Source: an uncultured delta proteobacterium (GTDB taxonomy: Bacteria; Desulfobacterota; Desulfobacteria; Desulfobacterales; JAHEIW01). Taken from it: DNA of 64,000 nt. Shown piece by piece: positions 5,801 through 62,063 of the stretch; position 1 is the first letter of the stretch, and each line of letters begins with the position of its first letter. The stretch spans positions 64,001-128,000 of the forward strand of contig CAVPNL010000009.1 in assembly GCA_963706575.1 (NCBI GenBank). The letters are read 5' to 3'. The notes beneath the pieces were generated by a model that was not told the DNA's origin, ran no database searches, and was given only the letters and a program-made list of their open reading frames with translations. The position numbers were made by a program, and so were the translations under genes.

Positions 5801-6075
5801 AATATTATATATAATAAAAAGATAATAATAAATAAGGGCTGTTCATAAAACCAATAACTCTGTAAAATTCTTAAATCATATATAAATAGTTAAAAAAAAA
5901 TGATCAAAAGATAACCGTTTCAATGGTGATAAGTGGGTAGATATCTACAGTAAAAATTAAATGTTGATAACATTGAATTTATAAACACTGTATTAATAAA
6001 GTGTTGTTGAAAAAGAATATCCGGCTTATCTTTAATTTAAATATTTTATTTTAAATAGTTATAAAAAATAACACC
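5801..6075. other. Probable chromosomal replication origin (oriC)
   Basis: Very AT-rich; DnaA-box-like 9-mers at 5840, 5924, 5941, 5962, 5979, 6005; minus strand box-GCCC-(TTA/ATT)n unwinding-type motif directly before dnaN. Confidence 0.65.
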
Positions 6076-6078
6076 CGT

Positions 6079-6609
6079 TTAGGATTTCGCATTGAGCCAT
6101 TTTTTTATCAAGTATATTTCATGGCTTTGCCAGCGGTTCGATGTTCTTAATTTAATAAAGGTTTTATATAATTTTTCTAAAAATTGCAAGATCTTATCAT
6201 AAAGAAAGATTTTTTCTAAAACGCTTGCTTCCACGTCATCCGGGTTCTCGGGTGGTGCGATTTTCGGTGTTTTTAAACTGCTCAGATTTAAACTTTCACC
6301 CTTTAAAGTGAACTGCCATTTTTGCTGGGAAGATCGGTAAACCAGATTGAGTTCCGCCACCAGGGCACCATTTTGTAAGGCCACCTTGGCTTCCTCAAGG
6401 CCGGCATCTTCACCTTTGATCGTAATTCGCTCAAACGCTTTTTTATGTTTTTTTTCAAGGACAACCCGGTTGCCGATTTCAAATGAAGTTAAATCCGGAT
6501 CTGCATTTCTCAAGATAGACGGGTCCTGTTCTATGACAAACCACAACCAGGTTAAAAACTCATCACCTAAAAATTTAAATCGGTTATAGGCTACCGCAAT
6601 ATCTAACAT
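6079..6609 (-). CDS. RdgC-associated / RdgC C-terminal-like protein
   Basis: FLGDEFLTWLW, EEAKVALQNG, FTLKGE motifs; 12 nt downstream of the rdgC-like gene. Confidence 0.6.
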   Translation of the reverse strand: MLDIAVAYNRFKFLGDEFLTWLWFVIEQDPSILRNADPDLTSFEIGNRVVLEKKHKKAFERITIKGEDAGLEEAKVALQNGALVAELNLVYRSSQQKWQFTLKGESLNLSSLKTPKIAPPENPDDVEASVLEKIFLYDKILQFLEKLYKTFIKLRTSNRWQSHEIYLIKKWLNAKS

Positions 6610-6621
6610 TTAATTCTTCGC

Positions 6622-7236
6622 TTATTCCGCAAAATTTGTCGGAGAAAGTTTAAGGAGGAGATCTTTTTCAGTATCCGTCAAACCTGAATCCAAATGGGCA
6701 GCGGTATAGGGAATCACCCGAATCAGACTTAAGTCGAACGATCTTAAAAACAATGTTTCCAATTCTTCATTTGGCCCCTTGAGGTTGGAAAAAAACCACA
6801 AAACCGAATCCTCATAATTCCAGATGATGTCATATACATTTGGGGTTGCCGGAACCTTTAGGTTTAACCGATCGATCACAAGATCTTTTATGGTCTGCTT
6901 TTCGTTGCGGGACAGATATTGTCTACCGCTGTCAGCCAGGCGCTGGGCTGATTCGATCATAAAATGTTTTTTGATCACTTTGGACGGTATGGTTTTTTTA
7001 TCAATTCGCAGGGCAAAAACCAGATAGGTCCCATAAGCATAAGTCGACCCGCCAAAATCAGGCTGGTACGGCTTTTCAAAAGATGTCCAGCCAACCGCTT
7101 TTTCTGAAGCGTGATCATCTATTTCAGAAATCACATTTTTTTTAAGCCCGGCGGCAACCGTTTCAAGAACCGGCCTTTTAAGCCGGCCCTTAACCGTATA
7201 GCGTGTGATTGAATTTGAGGCAGACAACAAACCCAT
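6622..7236 (-). CDS. rdgC: Recombination-associated protein RdgC-like (N-terminal type)
   Basis: GWT, LRIDKKTIPSKVIKK, LSRNEKQTIKD motifs of the RdgC family; only 204 aa. Confidence 0.7.
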   Translation of the reverse strand: MGLLSASNSITRYTVKGRLKRPVLETVAAGLKKNVISEIDDHASEKAVGWTSFEKPYQPDFGGSTYAYGTYLVFALRIDKKTIPSKVIKKHFMIESAQRLADSGRQYLSRNEKQTIKDLVIDRLNLKVPATPNVYDIIWNYEDSVLWFFSNLKGPNEELETLFLRSFDLSLIRVIPYTAAHLDSGLTDTEKDLLLKLSPTNFAE

Positions 7237-42525: not shown

Positions 42526-43839
42526 ATGGCAAAACATAAAACCCCGTTGTTGGACCAGCTTGAAAGCGGGCCGTGGCCGAGCTTTGTTTCGGATTTGAAA
42601 CAACAGGCCGAAGTCAGGGCAAAAAACAAGGAGAAAGTCGAGTTTCAGATTCCTGTGGACGTTGTTGAAGATCTTTTGGGCATAATGGAGCTTTCTTTCA
42701 AACACGGCAGAACCCATTGGAAACACGGTGGAATCGTTGGCGTGTTCGGCTATGGCGGTGGTGTTATCGGTCGCTATTGCGATCAGCCTCAAGCGTTTCC
42801 GGGTGTGGCACACTTCCATACCATGCGTGTCAATCAGCCGGGCGGCAAATTTTATACCGCCGAATATTTACGACAGCTCTGTGATCTTTGGGATTTCCGC
42901 GGCAGCGGTATCACCAACATGCACGGCTCTACCGGCGACATTATTTTTCTGGGTACCACCACCCCCCAGCTGGAAGAAATCTTCTATGAGATGACTCACA
43001 AATTCAACCAGGACCTGGGCGGCTCGGGTTCCAACCTGCGGACACCCTCGGACTGCATCGGTCAGGCACGTTGCGAATACGCCTGCTACGACACCCAGGC
43101 CCTCTGCTATCATCTGACCCAGGAATATCAGGATGAGCTGCACCGGCCGGCATTTCCCTATAAGTTCAAATTTAAATTTGACGGTTGTCCCAACTGCTGT
43201 GTGGCTTCGATCGCCCGAGCGGACATGTCCTATATCGGCACCTGGAGAGATGACATCCGTATTGATGAGGAAGCGGTCCAGGCTTACATCGGCGGCGAGA
43301 TTGCGCCCAATGCCGGCGACCACAGCGGTCGCGACTGGGGCGCATTCGACATCCAGAAAGAAGTCATTGATCTTTGCCCCACTGAATGCATGTGGATGGA
43401 AGGCGGTAAGCTCATGATCGATAACAAGGAGTGCAACCGCTGCATGCACTGTATCAACGTTATGCCCAGGGCGCTGCGAATTGGAAAAGATACCGGCCTT
43501 TCCATTCTGGTCGGTGCCAAGGCCCCGATTCTCGATGGTGCCCAGATGAGTTCCATGCTGGTTCCCTTTGTCAAAGCCGAGGAACCTTACGACGAGATCA
43601 AGGAAGTCATTGAGGCGATCTGGGATTGGTGGATGGAAGAAGGCAAGAACCGCGAGCGGCTCGGCGAGCTGATGAAACGCCAGGGCTTCCAGAGACTGCT
43701 GGAGGCCACCGGCATTCAGCCCGATCCGCGCATGGTTCAGGAGCCACGATCCAACCCCTACATTTTCTGGAAAGAAGATGAAGTTGAGGGCGGATTCAAA
43801 CGAGATATCAACGAATTTAGAAAATATCATCAGAGATAG
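42526..43839 (+). CDS. dsrA: Dissimilatory sulfite reductase alpha subunit
   Basis: LESGPWPSFV, THWKHGGIVGVFGYGGG, CIGQARC...GCPNCC, ferredoxin motif CNRCMHC. Confidence 0.99.
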   Translation: MAKHKTPLLDQLESGPWPSFVSDLKQQAEVRAKNKEKVEFQIPVDVVEDLLGIMELSFKHGRTHWKHGGIVGVFGYGGGVIGRYCDQPQAFPGVAHFHTMRVNQPGGKFYTAEYLRQLCDLWDFRGSGITNMHGSTGDIIFLGTTTPQLEEIFYEMTHKFNQDLGGSGSNLRTPSDCIGQARCEYACYDTQALCYHLTQEYQDELHRPAFPYKFKFKFDGCPNCCVASIARADMSYIGTWRDDIRIDEEAVQAYIGGEIAPNAGDHSGRDWGAFDIQKEVIDLCPTECMWMEGGKLMIDNKECNRCMHCINVMPRALRIGKDTGLSILVGAKAPILDGAQMSSMLVPFVKAEEPYDEIKEVIEAIWDWWMEEGKNRERLGELMKRQGFQRLLEATGIQPDPRMVQEPRSNPYIFWKEDEVEGGFKRDINEFRKYHQR

Positions 43840-43851
43840 GGGGATAAGACC

Positions 43852-44997
43852 ATGGCATTTGTATCATCAGGTTACAATCCTGACAAACCGATGGAAGATC
43901 GGATTTCAGATATCGGTCCTAAAAAATACGACGAATTTTATCCGCCGGTGATTGCCAAAAACAAGGGCAAGTGGCTGTATCATGACGTTCTCAAACCCGG
44001 CGTTCTGGTGCATGTTGCCGAGTCCGGCGACAAAGTATGGACGGTGCGCTGTGGTGGCGCGCGTCTCATGAGCACCACCCACATCCGGGAAATCTGCGAC
44101 ATTGCGGAAAAGCACTGCGGCGGCCACTTGCGGTTTACCACCCGTAACAACATCGAGTTTATGGTCGACGACGAGAAGAAAGTCGATCCGCTGATCAAAG
44201 ATCTTGAAAGTCGCAAGTTTGACGGCGGCAGTTTCAAGTTCCCGGTGGGTGGAACCGGCACCGCCATTACCAACATCGTGCACACCCAGGGCTGGCTCCA
44301 TTGTCACACACCGGCCACCGATGCCTCCGGGCCCGTCAAGGCCACCATGGACGTGCTCTTTGATTACTTTAAAGAGCACAAATTGCCGGCCAAGCTGCGC
44401 GTATCTCTGGCCTGCTGCCTGAACATGTGCGGTGCGGTCCATTGTTCCGATATCGCCATTTTGGGCTACCATCGCAAACCGCCGTTACTGGACCACGAAT
44501 ATCTGGATAAGATGTGCGAGATCCCGCTGGCCATCGCGGCCTGCCCGACGGCAGCCATCAAGCCGGCCAAGATTGAGGTCGGAGGCGAAAAGGTTAACAG
44601 TGTGGCCGTCAATGAACCCCGCTGTATGTTCTGCGGCAACTGTTACACCATGTGCCCCTCCATGCCGCTGGCCGACACAGAAGGTGACGGCATCGTCATC
44701 ATGGCCGGGGGCAAGGTGTCCAACCGCATCAGCGCACCGAAGTTTTCCAAGGTCGTCGTGGCGTTTATTCCGAATGAGCCGCCGCGCTGGCCCAAAACAA
44801 CGGATACCATCAAACAGATCGTGCAGGCCTATGAGAAAGGCGCCAATAAATACGAGCGTCTGGGTGAATGGGCCGAACGTATCGGATGGGAACGATTCTT
44901 TGAGAAATGTGAACTGGAATTTACCCACCATCTGATCGATGATTTCCGTGATCCGGCCTACTTCACATGGCGCCAGACCACGCAATTTAAGTTTTAA
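43852..44997 (+). CDS. dsrB: Dissimilatory sulfite reductase beta subunit
   Basis: [48 protein letters not shown]. Confidence 0.99.
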
Positions 44998-45012: not shown

Positions 45013-45050
45013 TGCAGGGGGTATGCCCCAAGGGGTGCCCCCTGCATTTT
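45013..45050 (+). terminator. GC-rich hairpin between dsrB and dsrD
   Basis: TGCAGGGGGTATGCCCCAAGGGGTGCCCCCTGCA followed by TTTT. Confidence 0.5.
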
Positions 45051-45067: not shown

Positions 45068-45313
45068 ATGGCTCTGGAATACGAGGAATCAAAAGAGAAA
45101 CTAGTAGCAGCATTGCAAAAGAAATTAAAAACCAAGTCCAAATTTTATTTTAATGACCTGGCCAAAATTTTGGAGGCCAAACCGCGTGAGGCCAAGAAGG
45201 TAATTAACCAGATGGTGCAGGAAGAGATTCTGGAATACTGGTCCAGCGGCAGTACGTCATTATACGGACTCAAAGGCACCGGCAAACAGGCACACGCTGA
45301 AGACGAAGACTAG
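45068..45313 (+). CDS. dsrD: Dissimilatory sulfite reductase D protein
   Basis: KSKFYFND, LEYWSSGST, YGLKG. Confidence 0.97.
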   Translation: MALEYEESKEKLVAALQKKLKTKSKFYFNDLAKILEAKPREAKKVINQMVQEEILEYWSSGSTSLYGLKGTGKQAHAEDED

Positions 45314-45356: not shown

Positions 45357-46871
45357 TTGAACACCATTTCAAAACAGCCGGATAGTGCGGGTTTTTCCCG
45401 TATCATGATTGCCGCTTTACGCGGAGGTTCCGGTAAGACCATACTTTCCACCGGATTGATTGCCGCGTGGAAAAAATGCAATAAGTCCATCGCACCGTTT
45501 AAAAAAGGTCCGGATTATATCGATACGGGCTGGTTGGCCCTGGCGGCCGGCCGGCCCTGTTATAATCTGGACACCTTCCTTTTAGAGACGCCTCAAATTT
45601 TACAGTCCTTTATCGCGCACACCCACCAAGATGATATTGCCGTTATCGAGGGCAACCGCGGGCTTTATGACGCTATCGATCTGGCCGGCAGCACCAGTAC
45701 GGCCGAGCTGGCCAAATTGCTGAAGACCCCGGTATTGCTGTGTGTGGATTGCACCAAGATTACGCGCACGATGGCGGCGGTCATTTCCGGCTTAATTCAG
45801 TTTGATCCGGATGTGATGATTAAAGGGGTCGTGCTCAACCGGGTGGCGGGTTCGCGCCACGAACGCATCCTGCGCGATAACATCGAACACTATTGCGGGA
45901 TCCCGGTCCTGGGGGCCATACCGAAACTGAGAACCCAGATTTTTCCGGAGCGCCACATGGGCCTGGTGCCCACCCCCGAACATGACTGGGCCGGTGAATC
46001 CATTGATACGGCTGCACAGGTTGCCACCGAGCACATCGATTTAGACACGATTTATGAAATCATCCAGGATCTGCCGCCGCTCGAGGCGAAAGAGGACGGA
46101 GGGCAGAGGACAGAGATCAGAGGTCAGCCTGCGACGAGCTCAGCCGAGTCGAAGACAGAAGACAGAAGACAGAAAACAGACGGTCACATTAAAAAGGCCG
46201 ACAGAATTTCAATCGAGGATTTTCCACCCTGCATCGGTATTATAAAGGATTCTGCCTTTCAGTTTTATTATCCGGAAAACATTGATGCCCTTAAAGTGGC
46301 CGGTGCGGAAATCGTTTTTATCAGCCCTTTGGCGCAAAATCATTTGCCGGCACTGGATGCGCTGTACATCGGAGGTGGATTTCCGGAAACGCATGCGCAA
46401 GAACTGGCGCAGAATGAAAGTTTCCGAAAAGAGCTGAAGGCCATGGCCGAAGACGGCCTGCCGATTTACGCGGAATGCGGCGGACTGATGTATCTGGGTG
46501 AAGAACTGGTACTGGAAAAAAAGGCATATCCCATGGTTGGGGTATTGCCGCTGACCTTTGATTTTTATTCCCGGCCCCAGGGGCACGGGTATACGGTTGT
46601 GACCGTCGAAAACGAGAATCCTTTTTATGAAGTCGGTGCTGAGATCCGGGGGCACGAGTTTCACTATTCCCGGGTGCTGCAATGGAGCGGTGATGAAAAG
46701 GATCTGATCTTCCGCATGCAAAGGGGCGTCGGAATTACCAAAGACAAAGACGGCCTCTGTTACAAAAACGTGCTGGCCACTTACACCCACATCCACGCCC
46801 TGGGTACCCCGCATTGGGCGCGGGCAATGGTTCGGAATGCAATTGCCTATCAAAAGAAAAAAGCGCAATGA
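45357..46871 (+). CDS. dsrN: Cobyrinate a,c-diamide synthase-like siroheme amidase DsrN
   Basis: GGSGKT, FKKGPDYID, IEGNRGLYD, PERHMGL, YIGGGFPE, AECGGLMYL, GHEFHYS; position after dsrD. Confidence 0.92.
   Translation: MNTISKQPDSAGFSRIMIAALRGGSGKTILSTGLIAAWKKCNKSIAPFKKGPDYIDTGWLALAAGRPCYNLDTFLLETPQILQSFIAHTHQDDIAVIEGNRGLYDAIDLAGSTSTAELAKLLKTPVLLCVDCTKITRTMAAVISGLIQFDPDVMIKGVVLNRVAGSRHERILRDNIEHYCGIPVLGAIPKLRTQIFPERHMGLVPTPEHDWAGESIDTAAQVATEHIDLDTIYEIIQDLPPLEAKEDGGQRTEIRGQPATSSAESKTEDRRQKTDGHIKKADRISIEDFPPCIGIIKDSAFQFYYPENIDALKVAGAEIVFISPLAQNHLPALDALYIGGGFPETHAQELAQNESFRKELKAMAEDGLPIYAECGGLMYLGEELVLEKKAYPMVGVLPLTFDFYSRPQGHGYTVVTVENENPFYEVGAEIRGHEFHYSRVLQWSGDEKDLIFRMQRGVGITKDKDGLCYKNVLATYTHIHALGTPHWARAMVRNAIAYQKKKAQ
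46091..46185 (+). repeat. 7-nt periodic repeat inserted in frame in dsrN
   Basis: agaggac-ggagggc-agaggac-agagatc-agaggtc-ag[cctgcgacgagctcagccgagtc]gaagac-agaagac-agaagac-agaaaac-agac. Confidence 0.8.
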
Positions 46872-46881
46872 AGCAGCGGTG

Positions 46882-47694
46882 ATGGATATTGATGGGATTC
46901 GAAACGCGCTTCTTGAAAATGTGGCTTCATCGCCTGCCCGCTTAACGCCGCAGCATCTTGCAAAAACCATCTTAGAAACATACCGCCTCGATAAAACCCG
47001 CGCCAAAGCCGTGCTAAAAGGCTTAGTTGCCCGGGGCCAACTGGAATACACCTATGAGTTCGGCAGCACCTATCTGGTGAGATCTTTCAACGAACCGGTT
47101 CGCATTTCGGACCATGTGGTCGTCAGGCCGCCGGGGCGCCGATATCAGCCCGCACCCGATGAGGTGGTTATTCAAATTAAACCCGGGGCCGCTTTCGGCG
47201 ACGGCCGGCATCCGACCACACGACTTTCGGTTAAAGCCATTGAATTTCTGCTGAAAAAAGTGCGCCCGGACTGGCTGAATGCAAATGGCTCTGTGCTGGA
47301 CATCGGAACCGGGTCGGGTATTCTGGCGATTGCTGCCGTATGCATGGGGGTTAATAAGGGACTGGCGATTGATTTTGATTCCTGTGCCATTGCAGAGGCC
47401 ACAGAAAATATTGCACTCAATCATCTGGAGGGTCAGCTGGTCGTATCTGACCGCCAGTTGGATACCCTGCATCGGTCATTTTCAATGGTCATTGCCAACT
47501 TGCGCTATCCGAGCCTGAAAAATATTTATCCCCAAATTACAAAGCGAACCGATACCTGCGGCGGGGTGGTATTATCCGGTTTCCGCCTTCATGAACGGAG
47601 TGATTTGATGGATCTTTATACCGCCAAACACTTTGAATGTATCTGGACCGCCGATGAACTCGAGTGGGAGGCAGTTGTATTGAAAAAGATATAA
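46882..47694 (+). CDS. PrmA-like SAM-dependent methyltransferase with DsrD-like N-terminal winged helix
   Basis: PGAAFGDGRHPTT, VLDIGTGSGILAI, VIANL, VLSGF; N-term LAKTILE...AKAV...LV....LEY....GSTYL. Confidence 0.85.
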   Translation: MDIDGIRNALLENVASSPARLTPQHLAKTILETYRLDKTRAKAVLKGLVARGQLEYTYEFGSTYLVRSFNEPVRISDHVVVRPPGRRYQPAPDEVVIQIKPGAAFGDGRHPTTRLSVKAIEFLLKKVRPDWLNANGSVLDIGTGSGILAIAAVCMGVNKGLAIDFDSCAIAEATENIALNHLEGQLVVSDRQLDTLHRSFSMVIANLRYPSLKNIYPQITKRTDTCGGVVLSGFRLHERSDLMDLYTAKHFECIWTADELEWEAVVLKKI

Positions 47695-47763
47695 ACAGTT
47701 AGGAGAGGTGATATTCTCAGATAAAAACAAATTAAGGAACTACCAACAAAGTGCTTTGTTTTT

Positions 47764-47800
47764 AAAAAAAGGCCGGCATATGGGAAATGCCGGCCTTTTT
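47764..47800. terminator. Bidirectional intrinsic terminator
   Basis: AAAAAAAGGCCGGCAT-atgggaa-ATGCCGGCCTTTTT between convergent genes. Confidence 0.85.
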
Positions 47801-47823
47801 ATGATTCGATCTGCTATTCTTCC

Positions 47824-48309
47824 TTATTCGTCTTTTGAACCCGGATGGCACTTGGCACAGGTTGTCGGCGCTTTTTTGGGCTTATATTTTTTGTTGAACT
47901 TTTTGTGACACCCCTTGCAGTTTTCATGCAGCGCTTCGGCATGATAATCTTTTATTTTTTCTTTTTTAGAAAGTTTTTTCTTGGCTTTCTTACCCTTGGG
48001 GGCTTCAGCCGCTATTTTGTGACACTCGATACACTTTTGAACATCGTCGCCTTCTTTCAGGTTGGAAAGCGGCTTGTTGTCTTTGTCATGGTGACAGTCT
48101 CCGCAGCCGTTTTTGTAGAGATCCGGATAGGCTTTGGCGTATTCTTTCTGGTGTTTTCCATGGCTAAACTCCACGACCCCTTTTTTGTGCTCCTTATAGG
48201 CCGGGTCCTCCAATTTGATTACATCCGGAGCTGTTTTAGCATAAATTCCGGCAGCAACAAACAGGGCAGCACAGCTTACAACAATCAAAACCAGCAGCTT
48301 TTTATTCAT
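47824..48309 (-). CDS. Tetraheme cytochrome c3
   Basis: Signal peptide; FSHGKH; CGDCH, CIECH, CKGCH, CAKCH. Confidence 0.93.
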   Translation of the reverse strand: MNKKLLVLIVVSCAALFVAAGIYAKTAPDVIKLEDPAYKEHKKGVVEFSHGKHQKEYAKAYPDLYKNGCGDCHHDKDNKPLSNLKEGDDVQKCIECHKIAAEAPKGKKAKKKLSKKEKIKDYHAEALHENCKGCHKKFNKKYKPKKAPTTCAKCHPGSKDE

Positions 48310-61139: not shown

Positions 61140-62063
61140 ATGAAATGGATTGAAGCCAAAGTTGTTTTTGGTGCCGATGACAACCCCTTTGCGGGCGAGC
61201 TCATTGCCAACCTGTTTTTTGAATTCGACCTGCAGGGTGTGGTTGAAGAAGACCCGACAATAGAGCCGGCCGAGGACTGGGCTGAGGATTCGATCGGTCG
61301 TGCGCAGCAGCATGCGGTTATCGGCTATTTTCCTAAGGACCGGCAGGCCAAAAAGCGTTGCAGGGTTCTGGAAGAAAAACTGGCCGTTTTAAAAGAGAAT
61401 TCCGGGCTGCTATATCGGGTCAGTTATAAAGAACTGGATGAGGAAGACTGGGCCGAGGCCTGGAAGGTTTTTTTTGAGCCCCAAAAAATCGGAAAAAAAA
61501 TTGTTGTCAAACCCACCTGGTGCGAGTATGAAGCGGATCCCGACGATATTGTGCTGGAGCTGGATCCCGGCATGGCCTTTGGCACAGGTACCCACCCGAC
61601 CACGGCCCTATGTATTCGTCTGATTGAAGAATATCTCCATAAAGGAGATTCGGTTTTAGATATCGGTACCGGCTCCGGGATATTAATGCTGGCAGCGGCC
61701 AAACTTGGCGCCGGAGTTGTTTGCGGCCTTGATAAAAATGAAATGGCTGTTAAAATTGCTCAAGCAAACCTGCGTCTGAACGGGATCGCGCCCCAGAGGT
61801 TTTCCGTAAAAGAGGGCAACCTCGTTGCCGGAGTTGAAGAACAGTACGATTTGGTTGTGGCCAATATTTTGACCCAGGTGATCTATAACTTGCTGGAGGA
61901 TATTGAAAAGATCCTCAATGACAAGGCCATTTTTATTTGCTCAGGGATCCTCGAAAAAAACGAAAACCTGGTAATTGCCAGAATGAAAACCATTGGATTT
62001 GATATTCTTGACCTATGCATAAAAGATCAGTGGGTGGCGATCGCCGGACGATATCGGGCGTAG
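61140..62063 (+). CDS. prmA: Ribosomal protein L11 methyltransferase
   Basis: MKWIE, EEDWAEAWK.FFEP, LDPGMAFGTGTHPTT, VLDIGTGSGIL, VVANI, SGI. Confidence 0.95.
   Translation: MKWIEAKVVFGADDNPFAGELIANLFFEFDLQGVVEEDPTIEPAEDWAEDSIGRAQQHAVIGYFPKDRQAKKRCRVLEEKLAVLKENSGLLYRVSYKELDEEDWAEAWKVFFEPQKIGKKIVVKPTWCEYEADPDDIVLELDPGMAFGTGTHPTTALCIRLIEEYLHKGDSVLDIGTGSGILMLAAAKLGAGVVCGLDKNEMAVKIAQANLRLNGIAPQRFSVKEGNLVAGVEEQYDLVVANILTQVIYNLLEDIEKILNDKAIFICSGILEKNENLVIARMKTIGFDILDLCIKDQWVAIAGRYRA

Follow-up and report, generated by a model that had tools for sequence, protein, structure and literature searches.

A PrmA-type methyltransferase with a DsrD-like winged helix behind dsrN in Desulfobacterales: a possible modifier of dissimilatory sulfite reductase

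Microbial sulfate respiration centres on the enzyme dissimilatory sulfite reductase (DsrAB), whose allosteric activation by DsrD was reportedly shown only in 2022. To our knowledge, binding to DsrAB is the only known activity of DsrD-type domains, and we know of no description of the site on DsrAB at which DsrD binds. The consulted part of PMC8794893 gives a KD of 0.35-0.54 uM for the binding of DsrD to DsrAB, which it activates, and describes the wide use of DsrD as a functional marker. An earlier reading of this DNA, made from the sequence only, mentioned reports of lysine methylation on sulfate-reduction proteins of Desulfovibrio, and this is indeed in print: the consulted part of PMC3125180 reports it for ApsA, ApsB and DsrC of D. 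vulgaris and assigns no enzyme to it. The gene described here, which encodes a 270-aa methyltransferase at the end of a dsr operon, has a class I SAM-methyltransferase domain and signature motifs in common with PrmA (T. thermophilus 1UFK/2NXE/3CJT; L. delbrueckii 3GRZ), but lacks the L11-binding N-domain and linker of that enzyme and has a winged helix there instead. The winged helix has the same topology and length as DsrD (PF08679; D. vulgaris 1UCR/1WQ2), which is encoded in the same operon here; however, it is fused to a 200-aa enzyme after dsrN and its wing is one residue longer, whereas DsrD is free-standing and directly follows dsrB. The same order of a winged helix and then a Rossmann-fold methyltransferase is found in family-2 O-methyltransferases (MfnG 7UX6, DnrK 1TW3, RdmB 1QZZ), but these match far more weakly (E about 1e-10, TMq 0.4-0.5, rmsd >10 A) and represent another catalytic family with small-molecule substrates. 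A literature search found no published description of this methyltransferase gene.

The window, meaning the whole stretch of 64,000 nucleotides that was analysed, carries on its plus strand dsrA (42526..43839, a 437-aa ORF that is the first gene of the operon and 81-95% identical over 13 syntenic loci), dsrB (43852..44997, a 381-aa ORF, syntenic in related loci), a canonical dsrD of 81 aa (45068..45313; Pfam DsrD PF08679, E 1.5e-28, 99.3 bits) and dsrN (45357..46871; NCBIfam CobB NF002204, 447.8 bits), the name of the last resting on its place in the operon and on the literature (PMC6018796, in the part consulted). The methyltransferase ORF follows on the same strand (46882-47694), with a predicted N-terminal, DsrD-clade-like winged-helix domain (residues 1-70, 46882..47091, from AF2 and hhalign profiles) and a PrmA-type SAM-dependent methyltransferase domain (residues 71-270 plus stop codon, 47092..47694, Pfam PF06325). 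The sequence-only reading placed the start of this gene 10 nt past the dsrN stop and a bidirectional terminator on its 3' side, and both placements proved correct. The stop is the TGA at 46869-46871 and the start the ATG at 46882, and a bidirectional, intrinsic-terminator-like hairpin lies at 47762..47804 (dG -24.7 kcal/mol, z -5.25 by direct folding), flanked by a preceding A-tract and a following T-tract; none of 200 shuffled sequences folds equally well, and a simple terminator scan does not list it. The hairpin separates the methyltransferase gene from a convergent gene for a small multihaem cytochrome c (47824..48309, minus strand, a 161-aa ORF with CxxCH motifs), which marks the end of the unit and which, together with tatC, is syntenic in dsr-linked loci. 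A possible alternative start is the in-frame ATG at 46837, which would add 15 residues (46837..46881, plus strand) and overlap the end of dsrN; the resulting length of 285 aa is also called for many database homologs, and this start is impossible in more distant relatives. Here dsrABDN and the methyltransferase gene form one transcription-unit-like block. One RNA-library contig bridges dsrN and the methyltransferase gene (46757-46980) and a second extends just 20 nt into the latter, a weak hint only. These contigs come from relatives (mostly 90-99% identical), may include DNA and prove nothing where they leave parts uncovered.

The catalytic half of the protein is of the PrmA type. Pfam PrmA PF06325 matches residues 71-269 (E 1.5e-43) with model positions 106-295 of 296, so that the first ~105 positions of the model, which comprise the N-domain and linker, are missing; the sequence-only reading had seen the alignment with PrmA begin at about residue 69 and the N-domain to be absent. 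The motifs GxGxHxTT, DxGTGSG, ANL and a C-terminal W, which are functional motifs of PrmA, align with those of the known enzymes (AFGxGxHxTT in 1ufk, T. thermophilus), and in an 80-row family alignment H110, D140, G142, G144, G146 and N206 are invariant and W262 is kept in at least 90% of the rows. Searches against PrmA structures give E 2.5e-20 for 3grz and 5.1e-15 for 1ufk (phmmer), and PrmA structures are likewise the top Foldseek matches of the full model (2nxe 7.3e-18; 3grz TMt 0.88, rmsd 2.4). The L11-binding N-domain of PrmA is replaced by a winged helix in the 270-aa methyltransferase. A separate, normal prmA with the full N-domain, also anticipated by the earlier reading, lies at 61140..62063 (plus strand); it is 36% identical to the methyltransferase over residues 67-234 and reaches 204.1 bits against TIGR00406, over the equivalog cut-off of 183.15, whereas the methyltransferase reaches 116.9 bits and falls below the cut-offs of all five NCBIfam PrmA equivalog models. 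By family score, the methyltransferase is not the genome's L11 enzyme.

The likeness of the N-domain to DsrD is clearest between family profiles. In an 8-family hhalign matrix the N-domain, DsrD and a family of proteins found at the dsrD position in Desulfobaccales-type genomes are mutually best: the N-domain scores 46.3 against the DsrD profile (Prob 96.0, 63 columns) and 54.1 against the dsrD-position family (Prob 97.1, 27% identity), and these two score 42-50 against each other. Against five regulator families DsrD reaches at most 30.4 and the dsrD-position family at most 21.9, the MarR, ArsR and Fur control profiles being thin (4-5 paralogs each); it should be noted, against a Dsr-specific reading, that unrelated regulator families reach 41-52 among themselves. 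The register that the sequence-only reading had aligned by eye (AKxV ... LEY ... GST) coincides with that of hhalign over these 63 columns. The dsrD-position proteins, of which 983 were found, are unannotated, 80-88 aa long and encoded between dsrB and dsrN; they have a wing motif, YTY(x)FGxS[FY][IV]E, in common with the N-domain, but are lysine-rich, free-standing rather than fused, and named only 'hypothetical protein' by the sources. Across the methyltransferase family the corresponding wing signature is YTYx[FY]Gx[ST][FY][LIV]E. Run over 121 whole genomes, the N-domain HMM recovers canonical DsrD genes from 6, at per-genome E of 6.8e-5 to 3.7e-4; in 4 others, which have no Pfam DsrD match, it finds the small ORF that lies between dsrB and dsrN (E 9e-9 to 4.7e-4). 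The dsrD-position profile in turn reaches a 273-aa PrmA-type protein among 1.84 billion proteins (E 4.8e-4), but also, against the Dsr reading, a linker histone (2.7e-7).

Single-sequence comparisons are less favourable to DsrD. Pfam DsrD PF08679 does not match the window methyltransferase at E<=1, and the DsrD model run on this genome does not place it in the top 15. Among the 49,773 ORF segments of this genome, the resident DsrD comes only 8th with the N-domain model (E 0.7), with a Fur/IclR-like regulator ahead of it (E 0.0026), and BLASTP of that DsrD against the N-domain gives an insignificant E of 0.36 in a register differing from the by-eye one. A Pfam scan of 25 family N-domains matches MarR_2 in 9, GMT-wHTH in 8 and DsrD in 7 (best E 0.027). 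The GMT-wHTH match (E 0.027) was discarded as meaningless, since GntR regulators of this genome match equally weakly. The YWSSGSTT motif that the consulted part of PMC8794893 describes for DsrD is replaced by YTYEFGSTY, and the KSKFY seen in the DsrD alignment, whose loss the sequence-only reading had already pointed out, by ARLTP. The 'GST' triplet is a trait of the window's close relatives: 19 of 38 rows from dsr-linked loci have it, compared with 2 of 17 from mnmE-linked ones. Short proteins sharing words with residues 1-70 were only 3 truncated fragments of the same methyltransferase family.

Residues 1-70 are confidently modelled as an H-b-H-H-b-b winged helix (AF2 pLDDT 90.5), and its superposition on DsrD 1wq2 (VIA Z 8.9, rmsd 2.6, 63 residues) is tied with that on many winged helices; the best fold matches are the DNA-binding ones of BlcR (Z 11.1), SAMD1 (10.5), MecI (9.5) and Zalpha (9.1). 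DsrD occupies only rank 39 in the Foldseek list for the N-domain, which speaks against the Dsr reading; the fold matches include the wHTH domains of O-methyltransferases (8zn0, 7v6j, 4a6d, 3tky), and those of the full-length model include the O-methyltransferases MfnG, DnrK and RdmB. An ESM Atlas look-up with residues 1-70 gave no usable match. As modelled, then, the N-domain fold is that of a generic wHTH, and the pTM of 0.85 for the full-length model suggests that winged helix and catalytic domain are held in a fixed rather than hinged arrangement. The description 'DsrD-like' holds only at the profile level and through the divergent DsrD subfamily, and finds no backing from the Pfam DsrD model, the within-genome comparison or the fold ranking. 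A complex prediction of DsrA, DsrB and the N-domain (888 residues, custom alignments, run without controls) returned a score of 0.05 (mark 0.32) and is neutral on binding.

The methyltransferase family is single-copy and occurs in 221 of the 301 genomes of the order, 275 of which have DsrA. Two observations count against a strict association with Dsr: no copy was seen in 65 of the 275 DsrA-positive genomes, and one is present in 11 of the 26 DsrA-negative assemblies. In favour of the Dsr reading, none of the 5 genomes in the three families that are listed for the order without a DsrA match (f76, f82, f85) yielded a copy. In a phylum sample of 121 genomes it is present in 4, belonging to the window's order plus one genome of another order, although DsrD is present in 53, which again weighs against the Dsr reading. 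The lysine methylation in print is that of D. vulgaris; the enzyme family, however, was seen in this sample only in the window's order and in one genome of another order. Among 85 distinct loci, 41 lie after dsrN, 18 after mnmE-CxxCxxCC-hyp118, 23 elsewhere without a common neighbour and 3 at contig edges, so the dsr linkage on which the sequence-only reading relied is true of about half of the homologs. By GTDB family, about a third have the gene behind dsrN, another third behind yidC-jag-mnmE-CxxCxxCC-hyp118 and the rest elsewhere. By a start-codon heuristic, 29 of the 41 dsrN-linked loci (17 GTDB families) show a gap of at most 58 nt or an overlap, and 16 of 17 measured gaps are at most 100 nt in the mnmE-linked loci (17 GTDB families), where the methyltransferase is the last gene. 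The window genome keeps the yidC-jag-mnmE-CxxCxxCC-hyp118 operon without a methyltransferase, which fits one orthologue that moved. The family tree is poorly resolved, 37 of its 82 inner branches being open. The dsr label requires 8 changes on the free tree, but a constrained tree is equal or better and the AU test does not reject monophyly of the dsr-linked copies (p 0.62); one event within a region of general synteny may therefore account for the linkage. Multiple independent captures behind dsrN are accordingly not claimed. When the tree is rooted with PrmA, the mnmE-linked and 'other' copies are basal, with poor support.

We tentatively interpret the protein, at odds that we put well short of even, as a PrmA-derived methyltransferase of protein amino groups that has been retargeted and docks on DsrAB. 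A compact DsrD-clade winged helix, which we infer to be a substrate-docking module, would have taken the place of PrmA's L11-recognition domain and flexible linker, and the chemistry would remain SAM-dependent methylation of a protein amino group (lysine or N-terminal). Since DsrAB binding is the only known activity of DsrD-type domains that we are aware of, the winged helix would most likely dock on DsrAB, where, mimicking DsrD, it may sit in DsrD's allosteric site or compete with DsrD for it. That could bring the PrmA-type domain within reach of lysines or N-termini in DsrA, DsrB or DsrC; an amino group of DsrA, DsrB or a bound protein (DsrC or DsrD) would then be methylated, and the outcome would be a tuning of sulfite reduction, not of translation.

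A non-Dsr protein target is nearly as likely as docking on DsrAB. The winged helix would then direct the same PrmA-type amino-group chemistry to a housekeeping protein associated with translation, RNA or membrane biogenesis, possibly hyp118 or the CxxCxxCC product, and the position behind dsrN would be functionally meaningless, a relic of a past move to a well-expressed operon's 3' end. We regard this as a serious possibility, albeit one that we would not bet on. It accommodates the 18 of 85 loci, from 17 GTDB families, in which the methyltransferase ends yidC-jag-mnmE-CxxCxxCC-hyp118, its absence from that operon in the window genome, the poorly supported basal position of mnmE-linked and 'other' copies, the monophyly that is not rejected for the dsr-linked ones, and the many DsrA-positive genomes without the gene. 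The CxxCxxCC neighbour is, moreover, weakly like the flagellin lysine methylase FliB (E 0.0048). However, the nearest profile relatives of the N-domain are of the DsrD type and include no translation factor, no candidate substrate was found (hyp118 has no family match), and the 23 'other' contexts, having nothing in common, give no consistent housekeeping signal.

We think it rather improbable that the winged helix binds nucleic acid or serves for dimerisation or as a substrate cap, in the manner of family-2 O-methyltransferases, in which case the substrate would be RNA, DNA or a small molecule, or the enzyme would be tethered to nucleic acid. The fold ranking led by DNA-binding winged helices, the O-methyltransferase wHTH domains among the matches and the apparently fixed domain arrangement all agree with such a role, as does the non-specific DNA binding of DsrD in vitro reported in the consulted part of PMC8794893; yet PrmA chains are matched with E-values 7 orders of magnitude better than those for O-methyltransferases, the PrmA signature residues are present, and no family of RNA or DNA methyltransferases reaches a comparable score. 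Least credible of all, and in our judgement highly improbable, is a second, redundant L11 methyltransferase as in public annotation, since the protein lacks the L11-binding N-domain (model positions 1-105), its score lies below every NCBIfam PrmA equivalog cut-off and a full PrmA is present in the same genome, even though the catalytic domain is PrmA-type and the sources name close homologs 'ribosomal protein L11 methyltransferase'.

Whatever the substrate, the public name 'L11 methyltransferase' of a widespread gene is contradicted by the domain evidence. Likewise, the dsrD position in Desulfobaccales-type genomes is taken by a divergent DsrD-type protein invisible to Pfam, and this matters because DsrD is a widely used functional marker that is absent from sulfur oxidisers. 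We consider it possible, though doubtful, that Desulfobacterales possess a dedicated methylating modifier of dissimilatory sulfite reductase together with a wider clade of DsrD-type winged helices, which would comprise canonical DsrD, the Pfam-invisible Desulfobaccales form and the fused form and would extend beyond current marker-gene models. If docking of the methyltransferase on DsrAB in the manner of DsrD is true, the combination would be the first candidate for an enzyme that regulates the Dsr system covalently, and would add a covalent layer of control to the key enzyme of sulfate respiration.

The 270 codons of the methyltransferase gene (46882-47694, +) form an open frame whose ATG lies 10 nt downstream of the dsrN stop (TGA at 46869-46871). 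Were translation to begin instead at the in-frame ATG at 46837, the protein would gain 15 residues and its gene would overlap dsrN. The gene is preceded on the (+) strand by dsrA (42526-43839), dsrB (43852-44997), dsrD (45068-45313; Pfam DsrD, E 1.5e-28) and dsrN (45357-46871; CobB-type amidase, 447.8 bits). Downstream, between the methyltransferase gene and the convergent cytochrome c gene, direct folding places a hairpin at 47762-47804 (-24.7 kcal/mol, z -5.25, with none of 200 shuffles folding as well), which is flanked by a 5' A-tract and a 3' T-tract and is absent from the output of a simple consensus terminator scan. Four RNA libraries, from three studies, yielded contigs that match dsrD, dsrN and parts of the methyltransferase gene, most of them at 90-99% identity; one contig of 224 nt (46757-46980) bridges the dsrN/methyltransferase junction. 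DNA carry-over is possible, and such contigs are no proof that the genes share one transcript.

Two further features of the operon were observed. In the dsrB-dsrD interval, a short GC hairpin with a T-rich run after it (45031-45043) could be an attenuator separating dsrAB from the downstream genes; terminator-like sites around it are no more numerous than in shuffled sequence. Three RNA-library contigs from relatives lack 99-180 nt of dsrN, two of them in the stretch 46100-46470, and the NCBIfam CobB subfamily model matches the gene in two stretches; the charged segment around residues 250-300 thus resembles an insert of variable length set between the two DsrN halves.

The sequence-only reading had described a PrmA-type domain fused to a winged helix, and this two-domain architecture is real. 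Pfam PrmA matches residues 71-269 (E 1.5e-43, model positions 106-295 of 296), and residues 1-70 are predicted to form a helix, a strand, two helices and a beta-hairpin, that is, a winged helix (pLDDT 90.5). No Pfam family was recorded on residues 1-70 except GMT-wHTH at E 0.027, a match dismissed as meaningless.

The same reading had likened the winged helix to DsrD, and several comparisons speak against this. BLASTP against DsrD of this genome yields E 0.36 in a different register, and among 25 family N-domains a Pfam scan at E<=10 returned MarR_2 in 9, GMT-wHTH in 8, DsrD in 7 (best E 0.027) and GntR in 5. Foldseek against the PDB found nothing at E<=0.001, with DsrD at rank 39, and in the VIA fold comparison dozens of other winged helices tie with DsrD (Z 8.9), and BlcR scores higher (11.1). 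Across the 49,773 ORF segments of the window's genome, the N-domain HMM places DsrD only eighth (E 0.7), and a Fur/IclR-like protein ranks above it (E 0.0026); the methyltransferase is not among the top 15 matches of the DsrD HMM.

Other comparisons, between profiles and across genomes, speak in favour. When the N-domain profile (25 rows) is aligned by hhalign with a DsrD profile (24 rows, from 23 other genomes and the window), the match spans 63 columns with Prob 96.0 and a score of 46.3, and its register is the one proposed by eye from the sequence. The small Desulfobaccales protein found at the dsrD position scores 54.1-54.3 against the N-domain (Prob 97.1, 27% identity) and 42-50 against DsrD (Prob 94-96), and in a matrix of eight families these three are mutually best partners. 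Against GntR, MarR, IclR, ArsR and Fur, DsrD reaches at most 30.4 and the small protein at most 21.9; the N-domain reaches 39.8 with IclR and 39.4 with GntR, values to be read beside the 41-52 that the regulator families reach against one another. It should be noted that these control profiles comprise 4-20 paralogs of one genome, with one protein common to the IclR and Fur sets. In the 121 phylum genomes also searched with Pfam DsrD, the N-domain HMM matches canonical DsrD genes in six (per-genome E 6.8e-5 to 3.7e-4), at coordinates coinciding with those of Pfam, and ORFs of 81-88 aa in four genomes that have no Pfam DsrD match (E 9e-9, 7.4e-6, 1.2e-5 and 4.7e-4). The GST triplet cited in the sequence-only reading proved lineage-specific rather than family-wide; the family-wide wing, YTYx[FY]Gx[ST][FY][LIV]E, is closer to the Desulfobaccales YTYFGGS[FY][IV]E than to the YWSSGSTT of DsrD. 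In our reading of these profiles, the N-domain probably sides with DsrD-type winged helices over any regulator family tested, by a modest margin. Another genome of the order (G040) carries, apart from its main dsr locus, a second DsrD-like ORF (C54:29619-29819, -, in a 118-aa frame) matched by both Pfam DsrD (1.3e-7) and the N-domain model (2.9e-4).

More than 120 full-length homologs share at least 66% identity with the methyltransferase. Within the order, the N-domain HMM matches 221 of 301 genomes and 110 of 155 genera, usually once per genome, the frames being some 270-300 aa long; across the phylum sample, 4 of 121 genomes have the full-length family and 53 have DsrD. DsrA was detected in 275 genomes of the order, and comparing the lists by hand places the methyltransferase in 210 of these and in 11 of the 26 DsrA-negative assemblies, counts that are no statistical test since the genomes are kin. 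In at least three of the 11, dsrN or dsrD adjoins the methyltransferase at a contig edge, and no methyltransferase match was found in the three families listed without a DsrA match (f76, f82, f85; five genomes).

Gene context was examined at 95 loci, 85 after dropping 10 duplicates, drawn from a species-genome pattern search, the 30 best N-domain matches (both biased towards close relatives) and 40 chosen regions, mostly one per unsampled GTDB family. The gene follows dsrN at 41 loci, nearly always as dsrABDN-methyltransferase with convergent cytochrome c and tatC genes after it, and follows a yidC-jag-mnmE-CxxCxxCC-hyp118 block at 18; 23 have neither context and three lie at contig edges. In terms of GTDB families, the dsr-linked context occurs in 17, the mnmE-linked one in 17 (including two loci from the separate dsrD-position fetch) and other contexts in 20, these last sharing no common neighbour (DUF2400, Usp, NifU, YceG, RNA ligase, RelA/SpoT and transporters were seen, among more). 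With start codons set heuristically, the upstream gap is at most 58 nt or an overlap at 29 of the 41 dsr-linked loci, and at most 100 nt at 16 of 17 measured mnmE-linked ones. In one mnmE-type locus (L023), the CxxCxxCC (PF03692) protein (5893-6561, +) bears a weak likeness to FliB flagellin lysine N-methylase (E 0.0048), and the conserved 118-aa protein hyp118 (6580-6933, +) has no family match. The window's genome holds this block, extending to oadB, twice outside the window (C6:5367-12895 and C9:28776-36401, with near-equal identity to the query), neither copy with the methyltransferase behind it; the duplication may be genuine, or the bin may be mixed (contamination reported as 6.39%). A block lacking the gene fits a single orthologue having been relocated between contexts. 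The family tree has poor resolution. Forcing all 40 dsr-linked rows into one clade is not rejected by an AU test (p 0.62), and the resulting tree exceeds that of the free search by 11.5 log-likelihood units. This suggests that dsr linkage may be one event, kept inside a wholly syntenic region.

The catalytic domain keeps the PrmA motifs AFGxGxHxTT, DxGTGSG, ANL and the C-terminal Trp; across 80 aligned family rows H110, D140, G142, G144, G146 and N206 never vary, and W262 is kept in at least 90%. PDB matches by phmmer are PrmA chains only (3grz, 2.5e-20; 1ufk, 5.1e-15), and the best fold matches of the full-length AF2 model (pLDDT 92.8, pTM 0.85) are PrmA structures (2nxe, 7.3e-18; 3grz, TMt 0.88, rmsd 2.4). 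Several homologs are named 'L11 methyltransferase' by their sources. The TIGR00406 score is 116.9 bits, below the cut-off of 183.15, and all other PrmA equivalog cut-offs likewise lie above the protein's score; the gene at 61140-62063 (+), with 204.1 bits, is on these scores the genome's real prmA. Plain L11 methylation is very improbable, and public records mis-name the methyltransferase gene. Three PrmA-type genes occur in the genome, with one copy of the winged-helix form. The third (C6:439667-440035; L003:1333-2196, -; 287 aa; TIGR00406 110.3 bits, under cut-off) has an N-terminal region that is different again and unrecognised, and adjoins CBS-domain-like and metallo-beta-lactamase-like genes, both labelled from ORF reading alone.

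In the literature, DsrD binds DsrAB (KD 0.35-0.54 uM) as an allosteric activator and binds DNA non-specifically, and Bilophila has it fused to DsrB (PMC8794893); in D. vulgaris, ApsA, ApsB and DsrC are reported to carry mono-, di- and trimethylated lysines, with no enzyme named (PMC3125180). A literature search that did not extend to subscription journals or bioRxiv supplements found no published account of a PrmA-like gene in dsr operons. We put forward tentatively, as the most specific account that these data allow, that a DsrD-clade winged helix retargets this PrmA-type protein methyltransferase to DsrAB or its partners. A non-Dsr protein target is nearly as likely; a nucleic-acid, dimerisation or small-molecule role for the winged helix seems unlikely, and some of the probability falls to none of the readings considered here.

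The DsrD-type group may extend further. In the three loci fetched from the four genomes where the N-domain HMM matches an ORF but Pfam DsrD has no match (L198:1495-1701, +; L199:1471-1713, -; L201:1471-1710, -; other phylum genomes), this small ORF occupies the dsrD position between dsrB and dsrN and encodes a lysine-rich winged-helix protein of 80-88 aa. Its 983 database relatives, from records of Desulfobaccales, Desulfobacca or Thermodesulfobacteriota, are named only 'hypothetical protein' and have no Pfam domains on record. Against 1.84 billion representatives its profile gives 123 matches at E<=0.001, mostly of 60-116 aa without a Pfam family; six match Pfam DsrD, three of them over cut-off, and one match falls on the N-terminus of a PrmA-type protein of 273 aa (E 4.8e-4). 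The profile also matches linker histone (2.7e-7). The small protein looks like a divergent DsrD and, if so, would be overlooked by marker-gene screens that use the Pfam DsrD model.
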